Source: a virus
Taxonomy: Duplodnaviria > Heunggongvirae > Uroviricota > Caudoviricetes
Strand: one strand, 5' to 3'
Virus record (IMG/VR): IMGVR_UViG_638341196_000009
Length of the DNA stretch: 12,067 bases
Shown here: positions 6,001-9,000 of the stretch, in pieces
Layout of the letters: the number at the start of each line of letters is the position of its first letter
How positions within the stretch are numbered: the stretch's first letter is position 1
Made by a program: the position numbers

Positions 6001-9000
6001 GCAATATAAAAAGCTCGCCGTAGCGAGCTAATAAAATGTATTTCTCTGATATTATGTTTATTTGTATTAGCTCAGACTTGACATCACAGGTTTCGTATAT
6101 AGAACATCATCAAATCTGTCAGTTTGCTATGAATGAGATATAGTAATTGAAGAGCTAACCTCGCATGTCAAAGCCAGATTTCTGAAAATCTCTGTAGACT
6201 TCCGGATTGTTGAAGGCCGGAAATTTGGCTTTATGAGCTGCGGACTTTATCGCTTCGCAATAGGCTTTATCACCGTTACTGGTAGATATTTTTAACGCCG
6301 TGCCATCCTGAGAGAATTCCATATGCAACCTGCATTTTTTCCCTTTCCAGTTATGCGGCTCATCAAGTTTGGCATTAATTGCAGCTCTGATTCCCCGCGC
6401 TTGCGCCCCCCATTCATCCTGATCATCCCAGCGTCCTGAACTGCAACTACCTGTAGCAGTAGTTTTGTGGCAATCTGAAGGGTGTAAAGGTGTGCATCCC
6501 GCAACAAAACCGACCCAAAAAGTCAACATAACGATTTTCTTTAATCCCACTTCTTGCTCCTCAATCCATTAAAATCTCAGCAATAGTAGTTGTTACGTCC
6601 GCCACTGGCTCAGAGCTGACTATCCGCTAAATTTAGCTCAGTGCCGTAGTTGTGTCAGAACAAACCTAAGCCGAAACCGTTTATTACAAAACAATAAATA
6701 TCAGGGTTTAAAATCCAGCACCCCATTTTGAAATACTTTATATACTTCCGGCGAAGGGGGGGCAGGTATATCAGCATTCTTTATCGCATTCATCGCTTCA
6801 CGACATAAATCGAGGTCTCCACTTTCTCTTTTAACCTCCAGTAGAAGGCCATTCGGGGCCATATGCATTCTCAGTGTACACTCTTTTCCTGAATACTTAC
6901 TCGCATCCCCGAACTGTTTTTCGATGGCGCTCTTGATTTGATGGGCATACAGACGGATATCCTCACTAACATCAGAAGTACGTTCAGATGAACTCACATA
7001 CTGTGTCTCTATTGCTTTATCGGAGTAATATGATGTACGGTCATGATAATTTGTCGATACAGCATCAGTGCACCCGATAATAATCCCACTAATAATCAAC
7101 GTAAGAATTGATGCGCTACGAAAACCCATTTTTCCTCACATATGTCATATAGTAAAGGATTATATATACCGTTGTTTTGGACGCTCAAACAGCGAATCAG
7201 ATCAAATAAAACGCACATTTGTTAACATTTACACAAAGTCTGCGTGGGATATTCTGAAAGAATATCCATAATGTGGAGAAAATCTATTGAAGTGCATGGT
7301 GCCGGGTGCCTCCCGGTGAATTCAGTACCAGCACCTGAATCCGCGATTATCCCATATACCTACTCGCTGATTGCCCCTCCGCACAGGGGGATTCACCATG
7401 CCAGTTTCTTTTAACAAACTCCCCGCAAACCAGACAACAGTCAACCGCCTGAATTGTGAAGTATTTAAAAATTTTTCCCGCTAACTGATACCCGGCTAAC
7501 AGTCTGGCGTTTTCTTTTTCAGCAACGGGAAAGCAACAACCACCACACCCGCCACCAGCACACCGTCAGCCAGCACTGACATTATCCGGCTGCTGCAATG
7601 CCATTCACAAAAACAGTAAGCAATCACTTTTTACCGTAACAGGTGATAATCCATACCACAGGTCCTGGCTATTCTGTTGTACTCCTGAACAAGAGCAAAT
7701 AATTCTGAATTAGAAACCATGAACTCATCGCAAACCCTCTGAATAGCATCACTATTCAGAATAATAACGTCTCTTCCCGAAAGACGATCAGGAGTACAGA
7801 ACAAAACTGTCAAACGGCTGAAGGCCTTTGCTCGTGCTGCATTGACTATATCAATACGCTGCCTAAGGATGAAACACCCCGACGCCTCATCAATATGCAC
7901 TCTACCCACACCATATGAATGATAAATATTTAATGCTGAAAAAACCATTAGACCGTATAACAAACACTCAATCAATACTTAACAGAACTTTTATTTTTGA
8001 CAAACATATAATATTTTCAACAATATCCTGAGCCAGGTATATTCCAGTATAAGGCTCTGCCGGAAGGAATCTGGAAGAATGAATATGGCGCGCTGTACTG
8101 GATTCGAACCAGTGACCGATTGCTTAGAAGGCAATTGCTCTGTCCGGCTGAGCTAACAACGCTGAATACCGATAATGGACCGCCATCGGGGACCCGCCCC
8201 CGCACCAACAACCCTGTTATCGTGTCGTCTGCTCTTCCTGATAAGCTAATGGCGGTTTGTGATGGTGGCCCTTGCTGGATTTGAACCAGCGACCTGGCGA
8301 TTATGAGTCGCTCGCTCTCACCACTGAGCTAAAGGGCCGGGAGCAGAATAATAACGGTCCGTAATTAATTCCGCAATAAAAAACCCGCTCGGCGGCGGGT
8401 TGTAGAAACTCTTCTAACGTCAGGCATAAAAAGCCCATCGTTATGACGAATTTACCACAGATTCCGGAAAAATCAACCTTGTTACCTAGTTACCTTTTTT
8501 AACTGCCGCTCAGCCCATGCTTCTTCAATATCAAACCGGGTCACCAGCGCATCATAGAATTTCTTAACTGTTTTTTCCCATGACGCGCGTGTTATCTGGT
8601 TTGTCACCTCGCATATAGCATTAAATACCTCCGTTGATGGTAGTCTTTCATAGCCACGACCACCACAACGCTGGCAGTCTCTGATAACAGGCATACCACG
8701 TTTTACCGACTCTTCACGGTGAATGGCGACACCACGCCCACGGCAATCCTTACAGGCGGTGGAAACCTCACCCTTTCCGCCACACTCCGGACAGGCAACT
8801 TTTACCACCTCCCTGACTTTTTTCCATTCTTCCCAGTAAGACGGATACACACCTTTCGTACACTTTGCCCATACCGGCGGCTTACCATCCGGATACTGGA
8901 CCTTGTTTGTAAAAACTACGCTTTCAATAAATTTTTCCCCATAGCAACAAGGGCACTGCTTTTTACTCGCTGCGCTGCGGGCATAATCCTCAAAAGCGTA

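Follow-up and report, generated by a model that had tools for sequence, protein, structure and literature searches.

TolA domain III (TolAIII) is the shared entry point of group A colicins and filamentous phages and the point at which force reaches TolB–Pal and so stabilizes the outer membrane. Here we examine a 12,067-nt stretch of viral DNA (IMG/VR record IMGVR_UViG_638341196_000009, Caudoviricetes), which we call the window and whose genes are read on the minus strand, and in particular two adjacent genes, P1 and P2, that encode short lipoproteins ending in this domain. We describe their gene structure, fold, lipoboxes, module boundaries, distribution and purifying selection, and we infer their localization, their expression in the lysogen, their ligand binding and a protective phenotype.

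Partners are bound to TolAIII by β-strand augmentation. The N-terminus of TolB, ColN and g3p-N1 of filamentous phages use strand β3, and the proline substitutions D418P and K420P in TolA abolish the binding of all three (PMC4339652). ColA binds strand β2 (residues 375–380), aided by K368, K379 and K396. The TolA–TolB affinity is about 40 μM (PMC4339652); the affinities of TolAIII are about 1–3 μM for ColN, 1–15 μM for g3p-N1 and 1.3 μM for ColA. A first-pass annotation of the window counted CpoB and Pal among the contacts of domain III as well, which needs correction: the site for CpoB is at the end of domain II of TolA, and direct contact between TolAIII and Pal is disputed.

The closest described relative of what we propose is artificial. 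In 1993, Levengood-Freyermuth, Click and Webster reportedly exported TolAIII to the periplasm of E. coli and obtained cells that were tolerant to colicins E1, E2, E3 and A; there is said to have been no tolerance to the TonB-dependent colicin D, and the cells were reportedly leaky and deoxycholate sensitive. As in our proposal for P1 and P2, a free domain stood there beside normal TolA, but the engineered domain was overproduced and soluble, whereas P1 and P2 are natural, mobile, diverged and predicted to be lipid-anchored. Phages also carry small outer-membrane lipoproteins that protect their carrier from phages and colicins, such as Llp of T5 and Cor of φ80 and N15. Llp and Cor, which show no sequence relationship to P1 and P2, act by inactivating the receptor FhuA, whereas our two lipoproteins would copy a domain of a periplasmic hub and titrate the ligand of the invader. 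Finally, lambdoid morons such as bor, lom, stx, nanS-p and iraM resemble P1 and P2 in being variably present, low-GC inserts with a promoter-like site and a terminator, although their products are different ones and the gene types of P1 and P2 are also found on plasmids and chromosomes.

Lipoproteins with a stand-alone TolA domain

Both minus-strand open reading frames proposed by the first-pass annotation are present (Table 1), each preceded by a good Shine–Dalgarno sequence. For P2, the GTG start is favored by a KKIV n-region that is conserved in homologs; RefSeq starts the gene at an internal ATG (6529). Both proteins open with a signal peptide that matches a PROSITE-style lipobox rule, IIGC followed by TDA in P1 and VAGC followed by TPL in P2, and the lipobox cysteine is invariant in both families. 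Thr occupies position +2 in each. Under the Lol rule of E. coli, a +2 residue other than Asp sends a lipoprotein to the outer membrane, and from this residue we would place the lipid anchor of P1 and P2 probably in the inner leaflet of that membrane.

The assignment of TolA domain III to both proteins, made earlier by eye, is borne out by Pfam, by sequence matches to PDB entries and by AlphaFold models, which agree. Against Pfam PF06519 (TolA C-terminal; cut-off 25), P1 scores 82.6 bits (2.4e-23) and P2 54.6 bits (1.3e-14), and both match PDB chains of E. coli TolA domain III (5e-28 and 5e-9, respectively). P1 is 60% identical to E. coli TolA 334–421, and the identity of P2 to TolAIII is 32–33%. 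The models have pLDDT >90 over residues 56–142 of P1 and 46–131 of P2, with the N-terminal 40–50 residues disordered in each. Superposed on solved TolAIII, they give rmsd values of 0.6–1.7 Å for P1 (3qdp, 2x9a and 1tol; AlphaFold/Foldseek) and 1.1–1.3 Å for P2, and the best PDB matches of both are 3qdp, 3qdr, 2x9a_B and 1tol. P1 and P2 thus share with the E. coli domain (~334–421; 1s62, 3qdp, 1tol, 2x9a) its fold, its order of secondary structure and its cysteine pair. As first noticed by eye, C84/C109 of P1 and C73/C98 of P2 align with TolA C363/C388, and this pair is invariant in the alignments of both lineages.

The two proteins differ in how closely they follow the E. coli domain at its binding edges. 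P1 ends in VLDFKP where TolA ends in PLDFKP, so that L417-D418-F419-K420-P421 is exactly retained and the β3 LDFKP is common to both; its β2 reads LLEVKR, and two of the three lysines that contact ColA are kept. The first-pass annotation had placed the terminal LDFKP in the second gene, which is wrong: P2 ends in GFDMRG, and its β3, FDMR, keeps the Asp (TolA D418) and replaces Lys420 with Arg. Its β2 is ALKIST. The word 'mimic', applied earlier to both, suits P1 (60% identical, LDFKP intact) and is much less secure for P2 (32%, FDMR, ColA lysines lost).

Neither protein is TolA proper. TolA has a transmembrane helix that binds TolQR, a long helical domain II and a site in the tol-pal operon, and P1 and P2 have none of these. 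Their matches to full-length TolA models span only positions 293–386 of 387 (NF007065) and 265–362 of 362 (TIGR02794), leaving out the N-terminal anchor; what precedes the domain is a disordered tether of 25–35 residues; and the genes lie between Q and the tRNAs on one side and the prophage holin on the other. Both fall below the NF007065 equivalog cut-off of 213 (P1 107.8, P2 53.7), and against the TIGR02794 cut-off of 59.45, P1 passes on its C-terminal part alone (75.6) and P2 stays below (47.2). A domain that is hung by a lipid on a short disordered tether cannot be energized, as that of TolA is. Because anchor and domain II are missing, P1 and P2 would be unable to couple to TolQR, to transmit force or to replace TolA, and could only compete with it.

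The domain itself is already annotated in the databases; the way it is built into a short lipoprotein, how widely this build occurs and what it is likely to do have drawn no study that we could find. RefSeq names the product 'cell envelope integrity TolA C-terminal domain-containing protein', a name given by homology only, and PHROG 5772, labeled 'unknown function', takes in both proteins (1.6e-62 for P1 and 6.7e-65 for P2). The RefSeq gene symbol for P1, 'tolA', is misleading on a 142-aa protein, and recognizing the architecture would correct a widespread mis-annotation of this kind. We searched the published literature and found no study of a natural TolA-domain lipoprotein, in keeping with the earlier remark that its author knew of no characterized prophage-borne pair of TolAIII mimics. 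One candidate from that literature, EDL933_2012, which is called 'TolA' in one paper and induced 32-fold by ciprofloxacin, was dropped when the supplement proved to list a tail fiber protein.

Lineages, distribution and selection

P1 and P2 are only 29% identical to each other, and the first-pass view of them as a locally diverged pair of paralogs does not survive comparison: they sit on separate old branches, and each occurs alone elsewhere, so that they appear to be old separate lineages rather than a dedicated pair. A rough neighbor-joining tree puts P1, on a long branch, next to the TolAIII of Enterobacterales as its sister; among TolA proteins, E. coli TolA comes closest to P1 (59%). P2 stands on a long branch of its own. 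That tree, in which P1 falls outside the Enterobacterales TolA clade, gives no support to the idea that P1 was captured recently from E. coli tolA. Relatives of P1 come nearly all from E. coli and Shigella, and in other prophages a 66%-identical variant is found in the same slot alone, without P2. The 1.18-kb cassette with both genes is present in 775 of 5,426 complete E. coli genomes, or about 14%, when counted at ≥99% identity and ≥80% coverage, and a scan of IMG/VR returned 80 loci, all of them this same E. coli cassette.

P2-type genes reach well beyond prophages, contrary to the earlier description of the genes as prophage cargo. Relatives of P2 form 370 clusters at 90% identity, and a P2-type gene is found on ~600 plasmids at 87% nucleotide identity. 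On IncI1/B/O plasmids it follows the relaxase gene nikB at a distance of 68 nt, in the same orientation, and converges with trbC. The pO157-like plasmid NZ_CP041624.1 (locus 6003–8523) carries an intact copy directly after a truncated IncI1-type nikB, and this copy and the nikB remnant adjoin toxB and IS fragments. The chromosomal sites are equally varied. In Enterobacter kobei, a lone P2-type gene lies between a glutathione peroxidase gene and a RidA-family gene, and in Serratia marcescens one follows nrdDG beside a GmrSD-N/HEPN gene pair; there the GmrSD-N (DUF262) and HEPN proteins are encoded immediately downstream (locus 8957–10736), possibly forming a small defense islet. A scan of one genome per species found P2-type genes in 27 species of at least 14 genera, next to neighbors as different as a SulP transporter, UmuDC and DMSO reductase, among others, with phage lysis genes nearby in the Shigella copy only.

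When 1.84 billion representative proteins were searched with a profile, 576 hits were obtained. Among the best 150 of these, 80 are 100–170 aa long, and 61 of the 80 have a lipobox. Named members from Rahnella, Erwinia, Dryocola, Salmonella and Klebsiella are called 'TolA' or 'colicin import membrane protein', again by homology, and at 50% identity there are at least 55 further clusters of short lipoproteins. The two lipoproteins of the window thus belong to an extensive family of short lipoproteins with a TolA domain, found on prophages, plasmids and chromosomes.

Both genes are under strong purifying selection. Compared with its variant, P1 has a dN/dS of 0.24 over the domain, rising to 0.58 over the tether; among the prophage, IncI1 plasmid, Enterobacter and Serratia copies of P2, the ratio is 0.08–0.14, with dS of 0.5–1.1. 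Values of 0.08–0.24 indicate that P1 and P2 are both working genes. The tether of P2, HPSxCHKTTATGSCSSGRWDDQDEW with an extra cysteine pair (C27/C36), is nearly invariant across genera. Within the domain, F412-K413-N414-A415-x-L417-D418-F419-K420 (TolA numbering) is among the most conserved segments in 55 divergent short lipoprotein relatives, and it includes the two residues whose change to proline abolishes ligand binding in TolA. Selection in the family thus seems to act on the surface formed by the β3 site, given that it is among the segments most conserved in these 55 clusters.

Possible roles of the tethered domain

The reading that we favor, tentatively and with somewhat less than even confidence, is that P1 and P2 are decoys, tethered to the outer membrane, that intercept Tol-dependent colicins and the g3p of filamentous phages. 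They would be independent moron genes that occupy the slot between Q and holin in a lambdoid prophage of the Qin type, each joining a lipid anchor and a flexible tether of 25–35 residues to a stand-alone TolA domain III. So held, the domain would lie just beneath the outer membrane and display the β3 (L-D-F-K) augmentation site that colicin translocation domains, g3p-N1 and the TolB N-terminus use, and invaders would be trapped in a dead-end complex ahead of the energized TolA. Because the parasitic ligands bind at ~1–15 μM and TolB at ~40 μM, a decoy could intercept invaders preferentially, and a modest amount of it might block them with little harm to Tol–Pal. P1 would act as a close mimic of E. 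coli TolAIII; P2, as an old divergent lineage with altered binding edges, would probably have a different range of ligands. The settings of these genes (a prophage slot, the end of the nikAB operon, pO157 and GmrSD-N/HEPN neighbors) are typical of accessory or defense genes. The I-pili of IncI1 plasmids are the receptors of the TolA-dependent phage If1 (PDB 2x9a). In the window, a terminator separates the module from the holin gene, as one would expect of a module that lysogens transcribe.

If this is true, a mobile, lipid-anchored copy of a hub domain would be an undescribed defense principle, one that imitates the hub instead of blocking a surface receptor. We envision that it could alter the performance of colicin- and phage-based antimicrobials on clinical E. 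coli. Its reach would include the prophage module in ~14% of complete genomes, as well as a relative carried by IncI1 resistance plasmids, which are common, and by the virulence plasmid of O157. It is conceivable, albeit doubtful, that short TolAIII lipoproteins as a whole constitute a large, unrecognized class of natural hub-domain decoys, carried across Enterobacterales by prophages, IncI1 and pO157 plasmids and chromosomal islets. By trapping the TolA-binding epitopes of invaders beneath the outer membrane, they would make their carriers broadly tolerant of filamentous phages and of bacteriocins that depend on Tol, with lineages (P1, P2 and dozens of others) tuned to different invaders.

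Several points weigh against a decoy role. Conservation of β3 across the whole family is best explained by the host's own TolB, not by variable invaders. In P2, all three lysines of the ColA site are lost (K368, K379 and K396 are replaced by E, S and H) and β3 is changed; at 32% identity to E. coli TolAIII, P2 may not bind the ligands of E. coli TolA at all. The module lies inside the late operon and could be expressed mainly in lytic growth. Its promoters are consensus matches only, and the promoter-like site ahead of P1 is not conserved upstream of the 66%-identical P1 variants. The stable residence of P2-type genes in Enterobacter chromosomes, with a conserved 5′ region, also fits a physiological role in the envelope. 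Nor could protection be absolute, if there is any, since the classical hosts of If1 are cells bearing IncI1 plasmids. Finally, a PADLOC search found no family for P1 or P2 at E ≤ 0.01.

A different account, which we regard as unlikely but well worth weighing, makes P1 and P2 modulators of Tol–Pal. A tethered TolAIII would bind the TolB N-terminus, compete with TolA and reduce the mobilization of Pal; the benefit would be an outer membrane weakened late in infection, for lysis alongside Rz/Rz1, or more vesicles, or a retuned envelope, and colicin tolerance would be a side effect. The place of the module directly upstream of the holin gene, within the late operon, is in its favor, as is the fact that β3, which TolB uses, is the most conserved surface of the family and that, whatever the host, TolB is the only partner that does not vary. 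The leakiness and deoxycholate sensitivity that periplasmic TolAIII reportedly caused in the 1993 work (Levengood-Freyermuth, see above) point the same way. Modulated TolB interactions have also been proposed in reviews as a regulator of vesicle production (PMC7391070), and, if they act on TolB, P1 and P2 would be the first natural regulators of Tol–Pal and vesicle release. However, relatives are found on plasmids and at ordinary chromosomal sites without lysis genes, and TolB binds so weakly (~40 μM) that effective competition would need high levels of the decoy domain. A constitutive tol-like defect would be costly, yet the genes are under strong purifying selection and present in 14% of complete E. 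coli genomes, and a purely late gene would need no terminator to insulate the module from the holin.

Another possibility, to which we give rather low credence, is that, for P2-type proteins at least, the TolAIII fold is a scaffold that recognizes some other ligand, such as a klebicin- or cloacin-type bacteriocin, a periplasmic protein with a disordered terminus or a component of conjugation or of a pilus. The low identity of P2 to TolAIII (32%) and its long separate branch would fit, as would the replaced ColA-contact lysines, the altered β3 and a nearly invariant tether with its extra cysteine pair, next to a P1 tether that evolves fast (dN/dS 0.58). The IncI1 gene, 68 nt after nikB and on its strand, would suit a link to conjugation, but the pO157 copy is intact after a truncated relaxase gene, contrary to a conjugation-specific role. 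P2 also keeps the β3 Asp (TolA D418) and a basic residue at 420, AlphaFold gave its tether no confident structure or docking (pLDDT <50), and no partner gene is consistently adjacent to P2-type genes.

That the two are decaying, functionless fragments of a captured tolA, mis-called as genes, is highly improbable: although RefSeq calls P1 'tolA', P1 matches only the last ~98 positions of full-length TolA models and frameshifted and truncated variants exist in databases, the selection analysis (dN/dS 0.08–0.24 at near-saturated dS) effectively refutes it. In addition, both lineages, like at least 55 more clusters, have a new N-terminal lipoprotein signal where TolA has its anchor; conservation extends to the upstream DNA; and 775 genomes carry the identical sequence.

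Module boundaries, transcription signals and prophage setting

Returning to the decoy reading, its moron-type setting can be drawn from comparison with other E. coli prophages (Table 1). Homology ends at ~7293 in prophages with the same Q/tRNA side and at ~5918–5930 in those with the same lysis side; the block 5701–7320 (holin, P2 and P1) is also found behind other Q regions. GC content is 41.6% across 6006–7188, against 49.5% for the window, and ranges over 0.36–0.46 in the module span. In other prophages, the same slot holds iraM, nanS-p/TerB-like genes, csp genes or TfpB with an AraC regulator. The P1/P2 span is thus a low-GC, moron-type cargo insert between conserved phage genes. The first-pass description of a self-contained cargo module between the Q/tRNA block and the lysis genes stands, given the low GC, a terminator of its own and comparative breakpoints at ~5931 and ~7293.

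Table 1. Features of the P1/P2 module and of the surrounding prophage genes in the 12,067-nt window
Feature	Coordinates (nt)	Strand	Details
P1, lipoprotein with TolA domain III	6701-7129	-	142 aa, ATG start
P1 signal peptide and lipobox	7129-7070	-	lipobox Cys20
P1 disordered tether	7069-6965	-	aa 21-55
P1 TolA III domain	6964-6704	-	aa 56-142
P2, lipoprotein with TolA domain III	6155-6550	-	131 aa, GTG start
P2 signal peptide and lipobox	6550-6494	-	lipobox Cys19
P2 conserved Cys-containing tether	6493-6416	-	aa 20-45
P2 TolA III domain	6415-6158	-	aa 46-131
Cargo module (P1 and P2)	5931-7293	-	comparison with other E. coli prophages
Candidate sigma-70 promoter-like site upstream of P1	7159-7188	-	TTGAGC-18-TATAAT; 10/12 consensus positions
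Second promoter-like site, P1-P2 spacer	6630-6658	-	CTGACA-17-TAAATT; 9/12 positions
Conserved 5′ region travelling with P2-type genes	6551-6603	-	upstream-DNA alignment of prophage, IncI1 and chromosomal copies
Intrinsic terminator	6003-6029	-	7-bp GC-rich stem, tetraloop, U-run; -13 kcal/mol, z = -3.25
hok-family toxin gene with sok antisense RNA	11475-11798	-	Rfam, 100.8 bits
DUF968 protein	9687-10736	-	
RusA	9300-9674	-	
Antiterminator Q	8482-9303	-	upstream of the P1/P2 module
Terminator-like hairpin	8382-8401	-	between Q and tRNAs
tRNA, CAU anticodon	8263-8338	-	Met per ARAGORN, tRNA-Ile per RefSeq
tRNA-Arg(UCU)	8086-8162	-	
Holin, P21-type (essD-like)	5688-5903	-	Pfam PF04971 1.8e-35; RefSeq coordinates, strain 55989

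A candidate promoter shared by both genes had also been proposed, and this sharing is unproven. The site itself exists upstream of P1, with a 10/12 match; it lacks the conservation upstream of P1 variants discussed above, and P2-type genes carry a 5′ region of their own. The motif alone is weak evidence, because such sites are common in this AT-rich region (11 found, 6.6 ± 2.7 expected). The P1–P2 spacer contains a second promoter-like site, and a search of it found no terminator-like site, so that read-through from the P1 promoter would also be possible. The intrinsic terminator that had been predicted is confirmed between P2 and the holin gene, with its hairpin at 6012–6029. Elsewhere, P2-type genes were not found to be followed by this terminator, which therefore goes with the prophage. 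It would be placed to keep transcription from within the module off the holin gene in the lysogen, and Q-modified polymerase would read through it.

Upstream of P2-type genes in prophages, on plasmids and at many chromosomal sites, ~110 nt of non-coding DNA are conserved and include a candidate promoter, TTGAAA-18-AAGAAT. Of this region, only the proximal ~53 nt remain in the window copy and ~35 nt in the IncI1 copy. The conserved DNA suggests a promoter, an operator or a 5′ UTR. A σE-type promoter was also considered there, and the match was unconvincing by eye. A small inverted repeat, AATAT-GCCA-ATATT, lies within the stretch, which is conserved whereas the coding region is near saturation in synonymous divergence.

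The window as a whole is part of a Qin-type lambdoid prophage, in minus-strand reading order, and in E. coli 55989 the matching region lies inside a complete prophage at the rspA/ynfA site. Holin is the first lysis gene downstream of the P1/P2 module; after it come, in order, a gene for a DUF1327 protein, lysozyme, Rz/Rz1, an IS3-family insertion sequence and tail-fiber genes. The two prophage tRNAs after Q decode the rare codons AUA and AGA, which occur three and two times in P1 and twice each in P2. An open reading frame at 7631–7975 (minus strand, 114 aa, TTG start) has two AUA, three AGA and three AGG codons; it matches PHROG 2873 (unknown function, 4.6e-64) and is unannotated in RefSeq 55989. 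A short DUF3927 open reading frame (7496–7582, minus strand) adjoins it, and both lie between the tRNAs and a full-length match to STnc100, a gammaproteobacterial small RNA in Rfam (7240–7430, minus strand; 114.5 bits against a gathering score of 47). This match, also present in phage mEp460_ev081, lies a little upstream of both the module boundary and the promoter-like site of P1. We rejected STnc100 as a part of the module, as it shows no linkage to P1 variants in other prophages.

The IS3-family element, which we take to resemble IS2, spans 2787–4277 (OrfA 3650–4060 and the integrase-type OrfB 2787–3692) between Rz/Rz1 and the tail-fiber genes. The window copy of the prophage is probably defective, because the head and tail genes of the 55989 prophage are missing from it; the TolA-domain module and the lysis genes are kept. 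At the far end of the window, an Rfam IS009 match (41–239, minus strand) falls within the tail-fiber assembly gene.

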